From: Escherichia coli
GTDB lineage: Bacteria; Pseudomonadota; Gammaproteobacteria; Enterobacterales; Enterobacteriaceae
Strand: one strand, 5' to 3'
DNA: 51,845 nucleotides
Assembly (NCBI RefSeq): GCF_003334315.1
Contig: NZ_QOWR01000030.1
Positions within the stretch are counted from its first letter, which is position 1. The number at the start of each line of letters is the position of its first letter. This document shows, piece after piece, positions 11,342 through 32,507 of this stretch. The translations under genes were made by a program, and so were the position numbers. The notes below the pieces were generated by a model. The model saw only the letters and a program-made list of their open reading frames with translations. It was not told the origin of the DNA and did no database searches.

Positions 11342-12151
11342 TTATAGGCCTCTGAATACCTCAGAAAGATTGAATTTTTTATAGTCCCTCTCTTGAATAT
11401 TTCCATTTGATATCAATCGATTCATCTCTTCAACAAAATAATTTATATCATCACACTTGTTATTATCCGGAAGATCTGAGTAGTTATAATTCCACCATTT
11501 TATTCTCAACAGTTCATCAATAACATTTGAATCAAACCTAAATCTGATTATTTTTGCAGGAACTCCTGCAACTATGGCATATGGGGGCACATCTTTGGTA
11601 ACAACGGAATTGGCAGCAATAACAGCACCATCACCTATTGCGATGCCACCTTTCAATACAACATCATTTCCTATCCAGACATCATTTCCTATAATCGGAT
11701 TTTCAGGTTTGATAATGAATGGTTTCAATGTCCAGCTACGTTCAAATTCACTCATAGCAAACTTATCAAATTCACCGTTATAAGTCATCATGTGAGTAGT
11801 AAAACGATTCAAAGGATGATTTTCACCCATTATTTTTACATTTGATGCAATACTACAAAATCGACCTATACGTATATTCCCTGAAAAATGGCAGGTCGGA
11901 AATGAAAAAGCGCCGACACTGGAGAAATTTTTCACAGGCATTGTTGAATATTCTTCAGCAATAACATTATCTTCAATTGTTATCTTGTCACCTTTTGAGA
12001 AAAGAAATAAATTCCTTTCTTTATACGACTTCTTCCCCTTATGATTTAAAAAGATTTTATTATCCATACAAAACTCAAAGTGTTTTTTCGTCCATCTGAA
12101 GGTAAGGGTTTTATTTTTATCTTCCGTGAATTTGTACAATTGAACTTTCAT
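11342..12151 (-). CDS. hexapeptide-repeat xenobiotic acetyltransferase (XAT class, Vat/CatB-like), 269 aa
   Basis: ATG-initiated ORF; C-terminal IGNDVWIGNDVVLKGGIAIGDGAVIAANSVVTKDVPPYAIVAGVPAKIIRFRFD...IKWWNYNY closely parallels the VatD/CatB hexapeptide core and KWWNW tail; ENHPLNRF lies at the catalytic-His loop position; gene and flanks are strongly AT-rich. Confidence 0.75.
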   Translation of the reverse strand: MKVQLYKFTEDKNKTLTFRWTKKHFEFCMDNKIFLNHKGKKSYKERNLFLFSKGDKITIEDNVIAEEYSTMPVKNFSSVGAFSFPTCHFSGNIRIGRFCSIASNVKIMGENHPLNRFTTHMMTYNGEFDKFAMSEFERSWTLKPFIIKPENPIIGNDVWIGNDVVLKGGIAIGDGAVIAANSVVTKDVPPYAIVAGVPAKIIRFRFDSNVIDELLRIKWWNYNYSDLPDNNKCDDINYFVEEMNRLISNGNIQERDYKKFNLSEVFRGL

Positions 12152-12360
12152 TGTTAATACTTCTACTTATAAATTATTAGTTTAATAACGATACTCTAAA
12201 GCCTTATGCTAATCAACTGTGACAGGATGAAAAATCGCCCTCAAACATTTAGCCTAATTTTTACGCTAGTTATTAATGTAATCATTCTAATACTTAACCG
12301 CCATTAAACTCAGAACCTAAAACGATAGTGGCCGTCCTATAACAGCCACTAACATCTAAC

Positions 12361-13785
12361 TTAATGTTTAACCATGACGTGGCGGACGACGGTGTAATCC
12401 TCCAGCCCATAAAGTGACATATCCTTGCCGTAACCAGAAAGTTTCTGTCCACCGTGCGGCATTTCACTTACCAGCATGAAATGGGTATTGACCCAAGTAC
12501 AACCATATTGCAGCCGTGCGCTGACGCGATGCGCCCTGCCCACATCTTTCGTCCATACCGAAGATGCAAGTCCGTACTGGCTGTCATTCGCCCAGTTCAC
12601 CACCTGTTCTTCGTTGTCGAAGAGCGTAACACTCACTACTGGACCAAATACCTCTTTTTGCACGATGGCATCGTCCTGTAATGCGCCAGCCAGCAGCGTC
12701 GGCGCATAGTAATAGCCATTACCCTTGCGCTTTTCACCGCCAGTGATCACTTTGATGTGCCCTGTCGCTTTCGCCTCTTCTACTGCCTTGCTGACGCGTT
12801 CGAGATGCGCCAGCGAGCTTAAAGGTCCAAGCTCCGTAGACTCGTCATCTGGCGCACCAGATTTTAACGTTGCCACCGCAGCACCCAGTTTTTCCACCAG
12901 CGTATCGTAAATGCCTTTTTGCGCGTAGATCCGACAAGCCGCAGTACAATCCTGTCCAGCATTGTAATAGCCAAATGTACGTACACCTTCGACCACTGCT
13001 TCAATATCCGCATCATCAAAAACAATCACTGGCGCTTTGCCACCAAGTTCCATATGAGTACGCTTAATGGACGACGCGGTATGGCTGATGATGTGCTCGC
13101 CGGTGGCGATAGAGCCCGTCAGCGACACCATCCGCACTTTGGGATGACCGGTCAGCGGATCACCCACCGTTTTGCCTCTGCCAAACAGTATGTTAATCAC
13201 GCCTGCCGGGAAGATATCTTTCGCCAGCTCTGCCAACTTCAACGCGGTCAGCGGGGTAATTTCTGATGGTTTAAGCACTACGCAGTTCCCTGCCGCCAGC
13301 GCCGGAGCAAGTTTCCACGCGGCCATCATCAGCGGATAATTCCACGGTGCGATAGAAGCCACGACCCCCAACGGATCGCGACGGATCATCGAAGTATGAC
13401 CTTCAAGATATTCACCTGCCGCCAGACCATTCAGACAGCGCGCCGCACCCGCGAAAAAGCGAAAAACATCGACAATCGCCGGGATTTCATCATTGAACGC
13501 ACTATGCAGCGGTTTGCCACAATTACGGGACTCCAGTTCGGCAAAAACCTGACCATTTTCTTCGATAACATCAGCCAGTTTCAGCAGACATTCCGCACGC
13601 ACTTTCGGCGTGGTTTGCCCCCATTCGGCAAATGCTGCATCTGCCGCGCGCACAGCAGCATCGACCTGCTCTGCGGATGCCTCGGCAATTTCCAGTAAAA
13701 CGTCCCCCGTTGCCGGATTATAGACAGGCTGTTTTTCCCCTTCGCCGCTAACCAGTTCTCCGTTAATCAGTAACTTATGTTGCAT
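12361..13785 (-). CDS. patD: gamma-aminobutyraldehyde dehydrogenase, 474 aa
   Basis: ORF track; aldehyde dehydrogenase family with catalytic Cys/Glu context; length matches PatD. Confidence 0.95.
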
Positions 13786-13806
13786 AGCATATTCCTGTAT
13801 CAGTGG

Positions 13807-14601
13807 TTATTGACCATTGTCGCCTTCGCGGGTTAGCCACCAGGCCCCCAGGATCGGCAAGGTTGTTACCAACATAACCAGCAGTGCCACCACGTTAGTT
13901 ACCGGTACATCACGCGGTCGCCCAAGCTGATTGAGCAACCACAACGGTAACGTTCGTTCATGACCTGCCGTAAAGGTCGTAACGATGATTTCATCGAACG
14001 ACAAGGCAAACGCCAGCATTCCTCCTGCCAGTAACGCCGAACTGAGATTCGGCAACACTACGTAGCGGAAGGTTTGCCAGCCATTGGCCCCAAGATCCAT
14101 TGACGCCTCAACCAGACTCCAGGAGGTGCGGCGAAAACGGGCGATGACATTGTTAAACACCACAACTACACAAAAAGTCGCATGACCGACCACGATGGTG
14201 AAAAATCCCGGCTCCAGATTGATGGTTTTAAAGGCGGTTAATAACGCCAGACCAGTGACAATGCCCGGCAGCGCAATGGGCAGCAGCAGTAACAGCGAAA
14301 TGGCGTTTTTGCCGAAAAAGTCTCGTCGCCACAGCGCGGCAGCTGCCAGCGTCCCTAACACCAGTGCCATTAATGTCGCCAGCGCCGCCACTTTAAGTGA
14401 CAGTGTCACGGCATCAAGAATATCACTACGCTGTGCTGCCACGCTAAACCAGCGCAGCGTCAGGCCCTGCGGTGGAAAACTAAACGCCGCATCTTCAGTG
14501 TTAAACGCATAAGCGGCGATAATCAGGATGGGAAAATGTAGGAAAACCACGCCGCCCCAGGCCGCCAGTTTGAGGAAAAACGGTGCGCGTTCAGAGTGCA
14601 T
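13807..14601 (-). CDS. ydcV: ABC transporter permease, 264 aa
   Basis: ORF track; multi-TM permease. Confidence 0.9.
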
Positions 14602-15532
14602 CGAACGCTCCCAGACGTTTCACGAACGCCAGGTACAGTGCGATAAGAACAATCGGCACCAGGGTGAATGCCGCCGCCATCGGCATATTGCCAATCGCCC
14701 CCTGCTGGGAATAAACCATATTGCCGATAAAATATCCTGGCGGGCCAACCAGCTGCGGGACGATAAAATCGCCCAGTGTGAGTGAGAAGGTAAAGATAGA
14801 GCCAGCGGCAATACCCGGGATCGCCAGCGGCAGCACCACATAGCGAAAGGTTTGTCGTGGACGTGCGCCGAGATCAGCTGACGCCTGCAACAATGACGGC
14901 GGCAAACGCTCAAGCGCCGCCTGCACGGGCAGGATCATGAACGGCAGCCAGATATAGAGAAACACCAGAAAGCGCCCCAGCCCGGAAGTTGACAGCGTAT
15001 TGCCGCCCACCGCAGGTAATGTAAGGAACGTAGTCAGCAGTGGTTCCAGCCCAAGATGTTGTAAAAACCACTGAGCCACGCCATCTTTTGCCAGCAATAA
15101 CGTCCAGGCATAGGCTTTAACAATGTAGCTCGCCCACATCGGCAACATTACCGCAATATAAAAAAACGCTTTCATTTTCCCGCTGGTATAGCGCGCCATA
15201 TACCACGCCATTGGAAAAGCCAGAATGGCGCTGGCGATAGTGACTGCCACAGCCATAGTCAGCGTGCGGAGAATGATGTCGTAATTCGCCGGATTAAACA
15301 GCGCACGAATATTCGCCAGCGTCAGTTCCGGCGTTACCGACATGGTGAAATCGTCAAAGGTATAAAAGCCCTGCCATAACAGCGTTAGCAGCGAGCCGAA
15401 ATAAACAATGCCAAACCACATTAGCGGGCCAAGCAGCAGTAAAAACAGCCCCAGCCCCGGATTACGCCAGAAGAAACCGGACACCTTACCCAGACCTGGA
15501 CGTGAAGGTGATTGCAATACATTCATCGCCAT
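14591..15532 (-). CDS. ydcU: ABC transporter permease, 313 aa
   Basis: ORF track; overlaps ydcV by 11 bp. Confidence 0.9.
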
Positions 15533-16546
15533 TCACCTCTCCTCAACCAGCGGCACCATCACATCACGCGACCAGGAAACCATCACCTGTTGTCCGGGCG
15601 TGAGCGTGGCAGGCAGTTCTTCGCCTGTCATATTGGCCTGACTCACAAGCAGTTTTTCACCGCCGTTCAATTTCAGTTCAAAACGAGTTGCCGCGCCCTG
15701 ATATTGCACCGCCTGGATCGTGCCATTGGCCTGCAGTTCACCAGGGGTGTTGAGGCGGATATGTTCCGGTCGCAGGGCGAAGCTTCCCGTCATGCCACAA
15801 AGTTTCTCTGCCATCAGTCCATCAAAAACGTTGGATGTCCCGACGAATCCGGCAACAAACGGCTTGCGCGGGCGCATATAGAGATCGCGCGGGGAATCGA
15901 CCTGCTCAATGCGTCCATTATTGAAAACCGCCACACGATCGGACATCGATAACGCTTCGCCCTGATCGTGGGTAACGAAGATAAAAGTGATACCGAGAGA
16001 CTGTTGCAGTTTTTTCAGTTCCAGCTGCATCTGCTCACGCAATTTGAGATCCAGTGCGCCGAGCGGTTCATCCAACAGCAATACGCGCGGTTCATTCACC
16101 AATGCTCTGGCGATAGCAACCCGCTGGCGCTGACCACCAGAAAGTTGTGACGGTTTACGTTGATGTACAAACCCCAACGCCACTTTCTCCAGCGCCTCTT
16201 GCGCCATTGCGTGCCGCTGCTTTTTATTCACGCCTTTGACCATCAGCCCATAGGCGACATTGTCAAGAATCGACATATGCGGAAATAGCGCGTAGTCCTG
16301 AAAGACAGTATTCACGTCCCGCTCCCACGGTGGCAGATTGCTGGCGGGTTTACCAAAGATAGAGATAGCCCCGCCGGAAAGCTGTTCGAAGCCAGCAATC
16401 AGGCGCAGGCAGGTGGTTTTGCCGGAGCCGGACGGCCCCAGCATAGAGAAGAACTCACCATCTTTTATCGCAATACTGACGCCATCTACTGCGCGCACGT
16501 CACCGTACAACCGCGAGACGTTGTCAAACTCCACTGCGTACGTCAT
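15533..16546 (-). CDS. ydcT: ABC transporter ATP-binding protein, 337 aa
   Basis: ORF track; Walker A GPSGSGKTT, signature LSGGQRQR, Walker B LLLDEP. Confidence 0.9.
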   Translation of the reverse strand: MTYAVEFDNVSRLYGDVRAVDGVSIAIKDGEFFSMLGPSGSGKTTCLRLIAGFEQLSGGAISIFGKPASNLPPWERDVNTVFQDYALFPHMSILDNVAYGLMVKGVNKKQRHAMAQEALEKVALGFVHQRKPSQLSGGQRQRVAIARALVNEPRVLLLDEPLGALDLKLREQMQLELKKLQQSLGITFIFVTHDQGEALSMSDRVAVFNNGRIEQVDSPRDLYMRPRKPFVAGFVGTSNVFDGLMAEKLCGMTGSFALRPEHIRLNTPGELQANGTIQAVQYQGAATRFELKLNGGEKLLVSQANMTGEELPATLTPGQQVMVSWSRDVMVPLVEER

Positions 16547-16563
16547 AAAGCACCCCAGCGAAG

Positions 16564-17709
16564 TTAGCGACCGCCCATAATGGCAATGTAATCCTGCGTC
16601 CAGCGACTGTAGGGAACAAACTTGCCCCCTTCTGCTATAGGCGTTTTCCAGAAGGCGATTTTGTCGAAATAGTTAAAACCGTTGGTTTCACAACCTTTTT
16701 CGCCTAATAACGGACTGGCTTTACACCCTTCCGGCACTACCGGTAACGAGCCAAACCAGGCCGCCACATCGCCCTGCACTTTTGGCGTTAATGACCAGTT
16801 CATCCATTTGTAGGCGCAAACCGGATGTTTCGCTTCGCTATGCAGCATGGTGGTATCAGCCCAACCGGTAACACCCTCCTTCGGGAAAACGGTAGCAACA
16901 GGCTGGCCTTCGGCTTTCAGGGCGTTGGCCTGATAGGGCCAGGCACTGGAAGCAACCACACCCTCGTTTTTGAAATCGCTCATTTGCACGGTAGTGTCAT
17001 GCCAGTAGCGATGGATCAAACTGTGTTGAGCGCGCAGCACTTTCAGCACCGCCTGGTACTGTTCTTCGGTGAGTTGATACGGATCGCTGATGCCCAACTG
17101 CGGCTGAGTGGCTTTAACGAACAACGCAGCGTCCGCAATATAGATAGGGCCATCATAAGCCTGAACGCGGCCTTTATTGCTCTTGCCGTCCGGCAGATTT
17201 TGCTCAACAAAAACCTCTTGCCAGCTATCCGGCGGCGTCGGGAAGGTTTTAGTGTTGTACATCAGCAGGTTCGGACCCCATTGATATGGCGTGCCATAGA
17301 CTTTGCCGCCCACGTTAAACCAGTCGCCTTTAACCACGCGCGGATCGAGCGTTTTCCAGTTGGGAATCAATGCGGTATTAATCGGCTGCACGCGTTTACC
17401 CATAATCAAACGCAGCGAGGCATCGCCGGATGCCGTAACCAGATCGTAACCCCCTTTGGTCATCAGACTGACCATTTCATCGGAAGTCGCGGCGGTTTTC
17501 ACATTCACCGCGCAGCCTGTCTCTTTTTCGAACTGCGTTACCCAGTCGTATTGTTTATCAGTTTGTCCGCGTTCGATGTATCCCGGCCAGGCGATAATAT
17601 CCAGACGCCCTTCCGGTTTATCTAAATTGGTAGGTGGTTCGGCGGCGTGAGCGGTCATTATTGTCATGCTGAGCGCACACAGGCTGCTGCGGGCAAATGT
17701 CTTGCTCAT
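16564..17709 (-). CDS. ydcS: periplasmic polyamine-type substrate-binding protein, 381 aa
   Basis: ORF track; signal peptide; PotD/PotF-like binding protein. Confidence 0.9.
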   Translation of the reverse strand: MSKTFARSSLCALSMTIMTAHAAEPPTNLDKPEGRLDIIAWPGYIERGQTDKQYDWVTQFEKETGCAVNVKTAATSDEMVSLMTKGGYDLVTASGDASLRLIMGKRVQPINTALIPNWKTLDPRVVKGDWFNVGGKVYGTPYQWGPNLLMYNTKTFPTPPDSWQEVFVEQNLPDGKSNKGRVQAYDGPIYIADAALFVKATQPQLGISDPYQLTEEQYQAVLKVLRAQHSLIHRYWHDTTVQMSDFKNEGVVASSAWPYQANALKAEGQPVATVFPKEGVTGWADTTMLHSEAKHPVCAYKWMNWSLTPKVQGDVAAWFGSLPVVPEGCKASPLLGEKGCETNGFNYFDKIAFWKTPIAEGGKFVPYSRWTQDYIAIMGGR

Positions 17710-17953
17710 AAGGTCTTACTCCTGTCGTAATTAATTGTTCAGCCGCCGTGCCGTAAAAATATCTCCTTGTTTAACCATAGACGGCGGCTTGCAGGCACAC
17801 CTTCGCCCCTGAGAAAATTTAATCAGGTTGTGAGCTACCGCGCATTATGCCGTCTGTAAGGTTATCTTCTGGAGTATAGTCAAGGAGTTAGGAAATATGA
17901 CTGCTATTCGAAATTCATATTACCCAATCTAAGAGGAATTAAATTAAACGCTA

Positions 17954-19360
17954 TTACAGCCGTTCTTGAATAAGTTTGCCTAATTGTTTTACCGCCTGTT
18001 CTTCACGCTCTCCCCACTGCCACGCGGTATTAAAACGGAAAAAACGTGACCAGTTTTCACCGGTAGAAAACATTTTACCCGGCGCAATACTGATATGATG
18101 CGTCAGTGCCGCCAGGCTTAATTCGCCGGCATCTAACGGCTCGGGGAGCTCCAACCAGAGAAAGTAACCACTGTCATTATGATGAATTTTCACTTCCGCA
18201 GGCAGATAACGCAGCAGTGCCTGCCAGGCACGTTGTTTACGTTCCGCAAGCTGGCGACGCAGGCGACGAAGATGGGCGTCGTATCGGCGCGTGGAAAGGT
18301 AATCCACCAGCGCAAGTTGCATCGGTGAGCTGGTGGAAAGCGTACTCATCAACTGCAAGCGTTGAATTTTACGTGCATGTTTTCCGGCGGCGACCCAACC
18401 AATACGAAAACCAGGCACCAGACATTTCGAAAACGAAGAGCAATGCAAAACGCCATCGTGGCGATCCCACGCTTTCGCAGGCAGCGGTTTTTCCCGTCCA
18501 AAATAAAGTTCGCTGTAAACGTCATCTTCAATCAGCGTTACGTTGTACTGATTGAGCAACGCCACCAGTTGTGCTTTTTTTTGCGGCGTTAAGGTAAATC
18601 CGAGTGGATTCTGGCTATTAGTCATCAGCCAGCACGCTTTCACCGGATACTCCTGCAACGCCAGTTCCAGCGCCTGAAGATCTATCCCTTCTTTAACATC
18701 CGTCGCCACCGATAACGCCTTCAGCCGTAGCCGCTCCAGCGCCTGCAACGCACCGTAGAAACAAGGATTCTCTACTATCACCCAATCGCCCGGTTCAGTT
18801 ACCGCTTGCAAACTGAGGTTTAATGCCTCTAACGCCCCGGCAGTAATGACAATTTCATCAGGAGAAATGGTGATGCCCTGTAAGGCATAGCGACGAGCAA
18901 TAGCCTGACGCAGTTCTGCGTTTCCTGGCGGTAAGTTTTCAATCACGCTCATCGCTGTGGCGGTTTTGCTTACCTGCGCCAGCGAGCGGTTTAGTTGTTG
19001 GAGGGGGAAAAGTCGCGGGTCGGGAAAGGCCGAGGCAAACGGAACGACCGACGGATCGCGACTGGCCTGCAACATATCAAAAATATAAGTGTTGATATCG
19101 ACTGCTTCATCTCGAGTGACTGGAATGACTGGCGCTTTCGGCATTTTTATTGCCTGTGGCGCAACGTAATAACCCGACTGCGGTCGTGCGATAATATATC
19201 CCTGACTTTCGAGCAACTGATAGGCATGGCTGACAGTCATAAAGCTCATGCCTGAAAGCGCCACCTGGTCACGCAACGAAGGCAAACGATCGCCGGGTTG
19301 CCAGATACCCGACGCAATCTGCTCGCGTAATTGTTCTGCAAGCTGCTGGTATTTTTTCAT
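17954..19360 (-). CDS. ydcR: MocR-family regulator (GntR HTH fused to aminotransferase-like domain), 468 aa
   Basis: ORF track; N-terminal wHTH, C-terminal PLP-fold domain. Confidence 0.9.
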   Translation of the reverse strand: MKKYQQLAEQLREQIASGIWQPGDRLPSLRDQVALSGMSFMTVSHAYQLLESQGYIIARPQSGYYVAPQAIKMPKAPVIPVTRDEAVDINTYIFDMLQASRDPSVVPFASAFPDPRLFPLQQLNRSLAQVSKTATAMSVIENLPPGNAELRQAIARRYALQGITISPDEIVITAGALEALNLSLQAVTEPGDWVIVENPCFYGALQALERLRLKALSVATDVKEGIDLQALELALQEYPVKACWLMTNSQNPLGFTLTPQKKAQLVALLNQYNVTLIEDDVYSELYFGREKPLPAKAWDRHDGVLHCSSFSKCLVPGFRIGWVAAGKHARKIQRLQLMSTLSTSSPMQLALVDYLSTRRYDAHLRRLRRQLAERKQRAWQALLRYLPAEVKIHHNDSGYFLWLELPEPLDAGELSLAALTHHISIAPGKMFSTGENWSRFFRFNTAWQWGEREEQAVKQLGKLIQERL

Positions 19361-19438
19361 TATCGAATCGTAATTATGTGCAGATGATTCGGCAGTCTAT
19401 ATCAGTTGTTAAAAATGACAACTTTTCGTTAACTGTAA

Positions 19439-19855
<417 letters not shown>

Positions 19856-19900
19856 AATTTCGACTGTCTCTCGCATGTCATTAACCTTTTTAATTGGCGA

Positions 19901-30851: not shown

Positions 30852-32507
30852 TTAACTCATCACGCGGTCGTCAACATACTGACGTTTATCCGGCGCTGGC
30901 GGGAAATACTGATACAGCCATGTTTCACTGATAGCATCCCCCTGACAACGCAGATACATCCGCATATCGACCGGATCAGTGGAGTCCGACGTCGGATACC
31001 AGTCAAACTGAATACGATAACCATCAATGGGTTCAATATAGAGAATTTCGATTTGCTTCGCTTCCCCACTGGAAAGCGTAATCACCGGCTCAATGCCTTT
31101 TGGCGCGGCAGCTTTCAGATCACCACCAACGAAATCGACGGCAAAACGACGTGCCCATTTTTCGGGATAGTGTTCACCTGGTGCCCAACCTTCCGGGAAA
31201 CCACCCATGCCGGTACGCGTCGCCATAACGCGCGCTAATGGGCAATGAACAGGCGGTTGCGCACTCCAGTACAGACGATACTGGAATGCAAATTCATCAC
31301 CCGCTTTTACAGCTTTTTCTGGCTGCCAGAAGCAGACAATGTTATCCAGCGTTTCACCCGTTGTTGGGATTTCCATCAGGCCGATGGTGCCCTTACCCCA
31401 CTTGTTACGCGGCTCCACCCACAGACTTGGGCGTTTGTTATACCAGCCCATAATGTCCTGATAATGGGAGAAATCACGATCCAGTTGCAATAAACCAAAC
31501 CCTTTCGGGTTGTTGTCGGTGTAAGCATTGAACTGCAATTTTTGCGGATTATTCAGCGGACGGCAAATCCACTCGCCGTTGCCCCGCCACATGGACAGAC
31601 GATCAGAGTCATGGATTTGCGGATGAATGGTGTCGCACATCCGGCGTTCATTAGTACCGCAGCTGAACATACTGGTCATCGGCGCAATGCCCAGCTGTTT
31701 AATGTCTTTGCGCGCATACAGGTGATTTTCCACATCCATAATCACCTGACTTTTCTCACAATGGATAGTGAACTTATAGGCACCAGTAATACTGGCGCTA
31801 TCGAGCAACGCATAAACGGTAAAGGTAGTTGCCCCCGGTTTTACCGTATCAAACCAGAAGGCGGTAAAGTCGGGGAACTCTTCTTTACTGTCGGTGTAAG
31901 TGTCGATCGCCAGGCCGCGGGCCGACAAACCGTATTGATATGTATCATCAACGGCGCGGAAATAACTCGCGCCGAGGAATGATACTACATCACGGCGCGC
32001 CAGTTCGGGGGCTTTAAACACGCGAAAACCGGCAAAGCCGAGATCGCTTTGCCCTTCTAATTGTTTTGTATCAACACCCGCATCGTTGTATTTGAACAAC
32101 TCCGGGCGAAAGTGAATTTCACGCGCCAGATGTGTTGCTGGATCAACAGAAAACATACGAACGCGGCGACGGAATCCCATTCCCATATGGAAGAACTGAG
32201 CGTCCAGTTGACGGTTCTCAACGTTATGCCAGAGCGATTTTTCGGCGTCGTATTGAATACTGTTATAAGCCTGCGGCGTCATTGTCGCCAGCGTGTCAGG
32301 TAACGGACGCGGCGCACCACGCCACGCTGTTTGCGCTAAGTCGTGCGCCATTGACTGTAGAATGGAGAAGTCAAAACGCTGGGTTTGCCCGTCGGCAATA
32401 TCAGAATCTGCCGCGAATGCCGCCTGAGAAAAAAGAGAAGCAATGCCGCTGGTACCGCACACGGCGGCCATAGCCATTGAACCTTTAATAAATCGTCTAC
32501 GATCCAT
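30852..32507 (-). CDS. opgD: osmoregulated periplasmic glucan biosynthesis protein D (Tat-exported), 551 aa
   Basis: ORF track; twin-arginine signal [16 protein letters not shown]. Confidence 0.95.

Follow-up and report, generated by a model that had tools for sequence, protein, structure and literature searches.

A conserved YdcR dyad lies at ydcR itself, beside the ydcSTUV-patD operon of Escherichia coli

The ydcR and ydcSTUV-patD genes of Escherichia coli are considered here in a window of 51.8 kb, i.e., the whole stretch of DNA that was analysed (51,845 nucleotides of contig NZ_QOWR01000030.1, assembly GCF_003334315.1). The regulator YdcR is encoded there upstream of an ATP-binding cassette (ABC) transporter of the polyamine type and of the dehydrogenase PatD. 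A preliminary description of the locus had read this arrangement as one regulated unit of putrescine uptake and catabolism, in which the regulator controls its neighbours. All six open reading frames (ORFs) were found in the 7-kb stretch concerned, each on the minus strand:

ydcR, 19360..17954, minus strand: 468 aa, from ORF and annotation; MocR-type regulator binding pyridoxal 5′-phosphate (PLP)
ydcS, 17709..16564, minus strand: 381 aa; periplasmic substrate-binding protein of the PotD/PotF family
ydcT, 16546..15533, minus strand: 337 aa; ABC ATPase, PotA-like
ydcU, 15532..14591, minus strand: 313 aa; ABC permease, PotB/PotH-like, its start codon adjoining the ydcT stop codon
ydcV, 14601..13807, minus strand: 264 aa; ABC permease, PotC/PotI-like, with an 11-bp overlap with ydcU
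patD (ydcW), 13785..12361, minus strand: 474 aa; gamma-aminobutyraldehyde dehydrogenase, 21 bp past ydcV
terminator-like hairpin, 12326..12351, minus strand: 11-pair stem and T-rich tail, 10 bp past the patD stop codon

Several complete E. coli chromosomes contain the 7-kb stretch with 100% DNA identity, and of 5426 complete E. coli genomes, 5399 cover at least 80% of it, with the genes annotated as patD, ydcV, ydcU, ydcT, ydcS and ydcR. The YdcR protein is exactly that of K-12, and the other five proteins are one to three residues off their K-12 counterparts (two residues in PatD). The gene identities that had been proposed are borne out by this annotation match together with family searches. 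Within the series ydcS-ydcT-ydcU-ydcV-patD the gaps amount to 17, 0, −11 and 21 bp, and the hairpin past patD is the probable end of the operon, which is named ydcSTUV-patD in PMC11052181 and in the supplement of PMC9321722. With such small gaps followed by a terminator-like hairpin, these five genes form the compact co-directional unit that had been described. The tight spacing or overlap claimed for the whole locus does not extend to ydcR, which has the same direction and is separated from ydcS by 244 bp. On the far side of patD, before yncL, the strain carries a frameshifted pseudogene of a CatB-related O-acetyltransferase (11342–12151, minus strand); K-12 does not have it, and its yncL comes directly after patD.

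YdcR consists of an N-terminal GntR winged helix-turn-helix domain (PF00392, residues 3–66, E = 3.6e-14) and a C-terminal fold-type-I aminotransferase-like domain (Aminotran_1_2, PF00155, residues 141–445, E = 2.9e-33). Its SFSK lysine motif aligns with the PLP-lysine region of the aminotransferase 2EGY, and the binding of PLP by the purified E. coli protein was detected by intact-protein mass spectrometry (Pfanzelt et al. 2022, PMC9321722). Such a combination of two domains and PLP binding confirms the MocR-type assignment. YdcR stays below all the named MocR equivalog cut-offs of NCBIfam that were tested, with 269 bits against 320 for PdxR, 241 against 487 for YczR, 186 against 480 for EhuR, 181 against 650 for MocR, 125 against 573 for PtsJ and 124 against 600 for GabR. 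The domain architecture is nevertheless shared with GabR, known from gabTD of Bacillus subtilis, and the structure 4N0B in the PDB matches YdcR at E = 7e-23.

The 160 bp upstream of ydcR were aligned for 79 Enterobacteriaceae loci, and the dyad ATAWCAG-N27-CTGWTAT derived from this alignment is present in 76 of them. Its fuller form, cATAACAGTT-N23-nnCTGATATAc (CAG-N27-CTG), has the exact spacing in 73 loci and one extra base in three, and the right arm ends 18–43 nt before the ydcR start codon across the loci. In the window, the dyad encloses the predicted core promoter of ydcR:

putative YdcR operator, 19397..19441, minus strand: left arm ATTACAG (19439–19433), N27, right arm CTGATAT (19405–19399)
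predicted ydcR core promoter, minus strand: TTGTCA (19421–19416), 16-bp spacer, TAGACT (19399–19394), enclosed by the dyad

A position weight matrix built from both dyad arms was scanned over the window. The best score, 25.3, belongs to the putative operator (window mean −44.6, standard deviation 11.4), which scores 15.7 when its other strand is read; the next distinct site reaches 14.4. Repeats several helical turns apart at the regulator's own promoter are what characterises MocR-type control, and the ydcR dyad has this form. In both GabR and YdcR, two repeats about three helical turns apart lie over the regulator's own promoter. Such a layout is typical of autoregulation, which is therefore implied in the two cases.

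Several observations concern the surroundings and the variants of this site. The second-best site of the scan (32224–32268, minus strand) combines a perfect left arm, ATAACAG, with the right arm CTGGCAT; it lies within a 551-aa ORF (30852–32507) and is probably a chance match. The left arm reads ATTACAG, not ATAACAG, in four of the five Escherichia sequences (the window and loci L003–L005). In the fifth, E. coli E69 (L002), CAG of the left arm has become AAG (ATTAAAG, ATTAAAGTT) and the dyad is not intact, and no dyad is recognisable upstream of ydcR in Yokenella regensburgei (L041). The gene hicB (19439–19876), with hicA upstream of it, adjoins the operator in the window, and the last base of its stop codon TAA (19441–19439) is the first base of the left arm. 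Among the loci examined, the only ones with hicB upstream of ydcR are those of Escherichia and a part of those of Citrobacter, so that the hicAB toxin-antitoxin cassette appears to have been inserted right beside the ydcR promoter.

The binding of YdcR on both sides of its gene has been probed by the electrophoretic mobility shift assay (EMSA) in PMC9321722. YdcR shifted a fragment upstream of ydcR, PRydcR, from 50 nM, and the complete ydcR–ydcS intergenic fragment, PRydcR-ydcS, was used as the negative control and was not shifted. Lanes with PLP, and with PLP and putrescine, were included, and no effect was reported for either. The primers listed in the supplement of that work were mapped, which places the two fragments in the window as follows:

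PRydcR equivalent, 19273..19475, minus strand: EMSA-positive; 3′ end of hicB, hicB–ydcR spacer and start of ydcR
PRydcR-ydcS equivalent, 17709–17953, minus strand: EMSA-negative; the whole ydcR–ydcS gap

The putative operator at 19397–19441 lies within the positive fragment. The K-12 DNA and the window are identical over 19361–19475, which comprises the hicB–ydcR spacer and the adjoining 3′ end of hicB; for the ydcR-coding part of the fragment (19273–19360), the identity to K-12 is known from the YdcR protein and not from a DNA comparison.

A control of the operon in the manner of GabR and gabTD would require YdcR to bind the ydcS promoter directly and to switch ydcSTUV-patD by an amino compound of the pathway held by PLP as an external aldimine, e.g., putrescine, GABA (gamma-aminobutyrate) or aminobutyraldehyde. 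Such a mechanism is favoured by the ability of YdcR to bind PLP, by the conservation of the ydcR adjacency in Enterobacteriaceae, by a weak dyad-like element in the E. coli gap (described below) and by the wording of PMC9321722, whose authors call the bound site 'upstream of a putrescine transporter'. The unshifted intergenic fragment and the lanes with putrescine and PLP speak against it, and so do the scores of YdcR under the GabR, PdxR, EhuR and MocR cut-offs. The arrangement of the genes differs as well. GabR is encoded divergently from its target and one operator is shared by both promoters, whereas the operon beside ydcR is co-directional, starts 244 bp downstream and has no operator.

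The search for a binding site upstream of ydcS, which had been proposed as a check of the single-unit reading, gave no conserved dyad or half-site pair in 75 intergenic regions (63 between ydcR and ydcS, 12 between ydcR and patD). Thus, an operator in the promoter of the adjacent operon, as in the GabR system, was not found for YdcR at ydcS. One weak dyad, CTTACAG-N27-CTGATTA at 17820–17860, agrees at 10 of 14 positions and has the correct N27 spacing, for which about 0.01–0.04 matches per 244 bp are expected by chance. It was rejected as a YdcR operator and is taken as a chance match, since dyad-like matches of this grade are in excess in the window (9, vs. 2.8 in shuffled sequences), since its conservation is poor and since it is positioned in the EMSA-negative fragment. 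Of the four other Escherichia loci, three (L003–L005) have no such element, and neither does any other genus; the fourth, E. coli E69 (L002), has the variant TTCACAG-N27-CTGATTA, also with 10 of 14 matches. Over the ydcR–ydcS gap, K-12 and the window differ at a single position, 17822 (T here, A in K-12), which falls within the weak right arm (CTGATTA here, CTGAATA in K-12) and within a block designated AACCTGnnnAAATTTT below. In the Klebsiella/Raoultella/Pluralibacter clade, a lone CTGTTAT half-site some 80 bp ahead of ydcS was not taken as an operator either, since it has no partner arm and is specific to the clade.

The conservation profile of the intergenic region, calculated for 64 sequences, resolves into five blocks. 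Read against known consensus sequences, they suggest that the operon has its own promoter region:

ydcR–ydcS intergenic region, 17710..17953, minus strand: carries the operon's own predicted promoter region
distal block TAACnCCTTGnCTATAnTCCAG, 17869..17890, minus strand: conservation at least 0.9 across the 64 sequences; contains CTATACT, with TATACT at 17878–17873
CRP-like element TGCGC-N6-TCACA, 17829..17844, minus strand: conserved half-sites and a variable spacer; runs into AACCTGnnnAAATTTT (to 17813)
proximal candidate extended −10 element CCGTCTATGGTTAAA, 17770..17785, minus strand: hexamer TATGGT at 17779–17774; conserved
leader block GGAGATATTTTTACGGCACGGCGGC, 17740..17766, minus strand: conservation about 0.9 or more; just downstream of the proximal −10 element
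Shine-Dalgarno sequence, near 17720, minus strand: ribosome binding site, conserved

The extended −10 consensus of sigma-S is TCTATACTTAA, and the proximal element may be of this type. The CTATACT of the distal block is a candidate −10 element of the sigma-S/sigma-70 type, and TGCGC-N6-TCACA resembles the CRP consensus TGTGA-N6-TCACA closely enough to be a putative CRP site. The distal block is present in 55 of 63 intergenic regions of the ydcS type and in 4 of 12 of the patD type, and the TCACA..AAATT part is kept in 61 of 63 and 9 of 12, respectively. The proximal element is retained in front of patD in 8 of the 12 lineages without ydcSTUV. Such retention of promoter blocks where the transporter genes have been deleted implies that the region is a functional driver of patD. 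The leader block, one of the best-conserved stretches of the gap, has no Rfam match, and the stability of the leader hairpin equals that of shuffled sequences (z = 0); the block could pair with GCCGCCG at 17789–17783. The leader sequence CGGCAC-N5-CTGAA was also considered as a sigma-54 promoter and rejected: its GGCAC resembles a −24 element, but there is no GC dinucleotide at −12.

Expression studies point in the same direction as the candidate sigma-S elements. The deletion of rpoS lowers ydcS and ydcT (PMC13339887), and PMC6135910 reports ydcS and ydcV as targets of RpoS. At the stationary transition of strain O157:H7, ydcS, ydcT and ydcU are listed as increased and ydcR is not listed (PMC2241611). 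The combination of sigma-S-type −10 elements with a CRP-like site in the gap before ydcS suggests an operon that would respond to the stationary phase and starvation.

The two neighbours could still be coupled by transcription alone. In this scenario, transcripts from ydcR or hicAB enter ydcSTUV-patD although YdcR has no operator at ydcS, and a minor YdcR-dependent part is added to the sigma-S promoter. The gap at 17710–17953 of the E. coli window has no terminator-like site, which makes a read-through from the ydcR promoter or from hicAB possible. The co-transcription of hicAB and ydcR is considered likely in PMC5120126, and the order ydcR-(ydcSTUV)-patD is conserved. In several relatives, by contrast, strong intrinsic terminators with stems of 9–12 bp and T runs are placed right after ydcR, which means that the coupling is not conserved. 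They occur in Leclercia, Silvania, Kluyvera, some Enterobacter and others:

terminator within the first ~100 nt past the ydcR stop codon: loci L050, L051, L052, L053, L061, L066, L072, L037, L080 and L015

The absence of ydcR from the genes listed with ydcS, ydcT and ydcU at the stationary transition speaks against the coupling, too. To our knowledge, no transcript spanning the ydcR–ydcS junction has been described experimentally. We consider the read-through explanation unlikely on this balance.

The transporter itself has the canonical PotABCD-type composition, shared with PotFGHI, of one binding protein, one ATPase and two permeases, and Pot components are the best named matches of all four proteins. 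YdcS passes the NCBIfam equivalog of its own name (810.8 bits, cut-off 725) and is far below those of PotF (59.8 vs. 636) and PotD (46.6 vs. 582). YdcT reaches 359.5 bits for PotA (cut-off 482) and 344.4 for TIGR01187 (cut-off 355.6), and the permeases reach 120 bits for PotB (cut-off 348) and 146 for PotC (cut-off 326). Therefore, in contrast to PotFGHI and PotABCD, no component of YdcSTUV attains a Pot equivalog cut-off, and the operon differs further in that it also carries a catabolic dehydrogenase gene. The crystal structure of YdcS is available (PDB 6NLP, match at E = 1e-254), and the nearest solved relatives after it are PotF, SpuD/E and PotD. The family searches and these structures uphold the placement of the transporter in the PotD/PotF polyamine-type family. 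Putrescine or a similar diamine is the presumed substrate, and YdcSTUV is listed among the putrescine transporters in PMC8674398.

PatD passes the aminobutyraldehyde dehydrogenase equivalog TIGR03374 (1036.3 bits, cut-off 909.3), in line with the identity proposed for it, and its enzyme function is established. It is the characterised aldehyde dehydrogenase of the PatA-PatD pathway as described in PMC8674398; patA (ygjG), by contrast, is encoded elsewhere. This transaminase pathway, which serves putrescine (and cadaverine), is known to be under sigma-S and nitrogen control and not under that of a MocR regulator.

A different function has been claimed for YdcSTUV, in which it is not a polyamine importer at all. 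YdcS would synthesise short-chain polyhydroxybutyrate in the periplasm, the transporter would take up double-stranded DNA in natural transformation, and the link to patD would be incidental. According to the summary in PMC6135910, transformation is reduced 6.7-fold in ydcS mutants and 9.5-fold in ydcV mutants, and YdcS was reported as a polyhydroxybutyrate synthase. The K-12 annotation carries the same term, 'polyhydroxybutyrate synthase', and the low PotD and PotF scores of YdcS would suit this function. The canonical architecture, the polyamine-binding proteins as nearest solved relatives of YdcS, the tight translational coupling to patD that is kept across genera and the listing in PMC8674398 all speak for an importer, and the non-importer function is judged rather improbable.

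The distribution of the locus was followed in one genome per species, which gave 80 Enterobacteriaceae loci with YdcR identities of 80–97%. In 63 of these, ydcR is followed by ydcSTUV-patD, and two further loci have an insertion between ydcR and ydcS. In 12 loci, ydcR directly precedes patD without the transporter genes:

loci without ydcSTUV: L022–L024, L026, L038, L056, L062, L064, L067, L073, L074 and L078

They include Salmonella diarizonae, Citrobacter amalonaticus, C. sedlakii and Superficieibacter, as well as members of the Enterobacter cloacae/hormaechei group and Pseudocitrobacter faecalis. The transporter genes have been lost in several separate lineages of the family, most of which keep the ydcS promoter blocks before patD. 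In Shimwellia blattae, the YdcR relative (79% identity) has no adjoining ydcSTUV or patD. The best 120 homologues in a word index were all from Enterobacteriaceae, and more distant relatives were obtained from a search of 50%-identity clusters. The six nearest clusters outside the family (55–42% identity) showed no ydcSTUV or patD neighbours, the sixth contig (L091) being too short to tell. The 55%-identical relative is divergent from cioAB and a DUF2474 gene, the 49%-identical relative is followed by a FixG/NapH-like gene, and three relatives have unrelated neighbours. The distant ydcR orthologues are thus not linked to transporter or patD genes, which speaks against a direct control of the operon.

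The cioAB and FixG/NapH-like neighbours agree with what has been published on the orthologous group. In the regulon reconstruction of Suvorova and Rodionov (2016, PMC5320631), 'YdcR' is the largest MocR group, with 65 regulators in 12 regulogs, and its supplement lists both b1439 and PA4132 in it. The predicted target in E. coli, Salmonella and Citrobacter is ylaC (PF10777). For Klebsiella, Enterobacter and Serratia, the prediction comprises both ylaC and cydAB-like oxidase genes; for Proteus, Photorhabdus, Vibrio, Shewanella and Aeromonas, it names cydAB-like genes, and for PA4132 of Pseudomonas aeruginosa, ccoN and cysI. Taken together, cioAB, ccoN4 or napH-like genes are named for YdcR orthologues, and ydcSTUV and patD are never among the predicted targets of the group (PMC5320631). 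PA4132 is MpaR, the one regulator of the group for which a response to cyanide has been shown; it then activates ccoN4 via the motif ATCTGAT (PMC10790758). For Salmonella, YdcR is a direct activator of srfN according to the description of Liu et al. (2017) given in PMC7400052.

The predicted targets carry sequences related to the dyad, which support its half-site independently in two places, one of them (ylaC) a candidate chosen beforehand. The 115-bp upstream region of K-12 ylaC contains an exact 10-mer half-site, CATAACAGTT, and GTAACAGAT 24 bp away, and the divergent region between cioA and the ydcR-like gene of the 55%-identical relative has two copies of ATAACAG and one GATACAG. These sites agree with the regulon reconstruction in PMC5320631, and together with the FixG/NapH-like neighbour of the 49%-identical relative they are what would be expected of targets of the YdcR/MpaR group. 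E. coli YdcR shares with this group the GntR and aminotransferase-like architecture and the dependence on PLP, and its recognition element contains CTGAT, in keeping with the MpaR motif. It differs in that no cioAB, ccoN4 or nirA target adjoins E. coli ydcR and the conserved site in the window is found only at ydcR itself. A separate observation concerns the label of ylaC. In the supplement of PMC5320631, PF10777/ylaC appears as an ECF (extracytoplasmic function) sigma factor, i.e., B. subtilis YlaC, and the annotation of E. coli ylaC is that of a putative inner membrane protein (K-12 region L082, 2782–3367). The label in the published table looks like a confusion of names.

The evidence is best accommodated by two adjacent and separately controlled units, and this arrangement probably applies: an autoregulated ydcR and an operon, ydcSTUV-patD, with its own promoter. 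In the first unit, a PLP-loaded YdcR dimer would occupy the ATAWCAG-N27-CTGWTAT dyad over the ydcR core promoter and thereby regulate its own synthesis. Binding itself has been observed, and repression is the more likely direction. The other E. coli target is probably ylaC, from the published prediction and the exact half-site. By analogy with MpaR, the signal could be a molecule that reacts with PLP, such as cyanide, in place of an amino-acid-like intermediate of the pathway, which is a speculative step. Elsewhere, members of the YdcR/MpaR group would control cioAB, ccoN4, napH-like genes, ylaC and, in Salmonella, srfN. In the second unit, the operon would be transcribed from one or more sigma-S-type promoters in the 244-bp gap, perhaps aided by CRP, and translated with coupling of its genes. 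Its signals would be the stationary phase and starvation, not YdcR. PatD converts gamma-aminobutyraldehyde, formed from putrescine via PatA, into GABA, or 5-aminopentanal into 5-aminovalerate.

Several points weigh against this arrangement. The EMSA control of PMC9321722 represents one in vitro condition and was made with K-12 DNA, which differs from the window at 17822, and a search of the literature found no transcriptome of an E. coli ydcR deletion. The order ydcR-(ydcSTUV)-patD is kept in 75 of 80 Enterobacteriaceae, even after the loss of the transporter, which may point to a functional link beyond shared inheritance. The gap between ydcR and ydcS of E. coli has no terminator, and the promoter, sigma-factor and CRP assignments derive from comparison with consensus sequences. 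The regulation of ydcSTUV-patD by YdcR that had been proposed was, despite these points, not corroborated: the ydcS-side fragment was unshifted, the conserved dyad of the window stands at ydcR only, the published regulon leaves out ydcSTUV, and the distant relatives of ydcR are found in other genomic contexts. Independent promoters and no control by YdcR are, in vitro and in silico, largely what was found, and the direct switching of the operon by YdcR is very unlikely.

The content of the locus is already annotated and published. The idea that YdcR controls the operon is a guess from association, probed once in vitro with a negative outcome at the ydcS promoter. The present analysis adds the precise definition of a YdcR dyad with wide conservation, shows that the operon promoter does not have it and reveals an adjacency of ydcR and patD that outlives the loss of ydcSTUV. 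A further possibility, advanced tentatively, is that E. coli YdcR is the enterobacterial counterpart of MpaR, i.e., a PLP-based sensor of cyanide or small molecules that may control itself and ylaC via the ATAWCAG dyad and, in genera such as Klebsiella and Serratia, cioAB, so that its position before patD would be a relic of synteny with no polyamine function. No paper linking E. coli YdcR to MpaR-like sensing of cyanide or PLP adducts was found.

For the biology of this family, the result corrects an annotation by adjacency. YdcSTUV is routinely labelled as a putrescine importer, and its substrate is only presumed. YdcR is still a regulator to which listings assign no function, and its neighbours tempt one to give it a putrescine or GABA label. 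The evidence points instead to autoregulation and to a regulon of the ylaC/cioAB type that is shared with the MpaR group, which shifts attention from polyamines to cyanide or respiratory stress.

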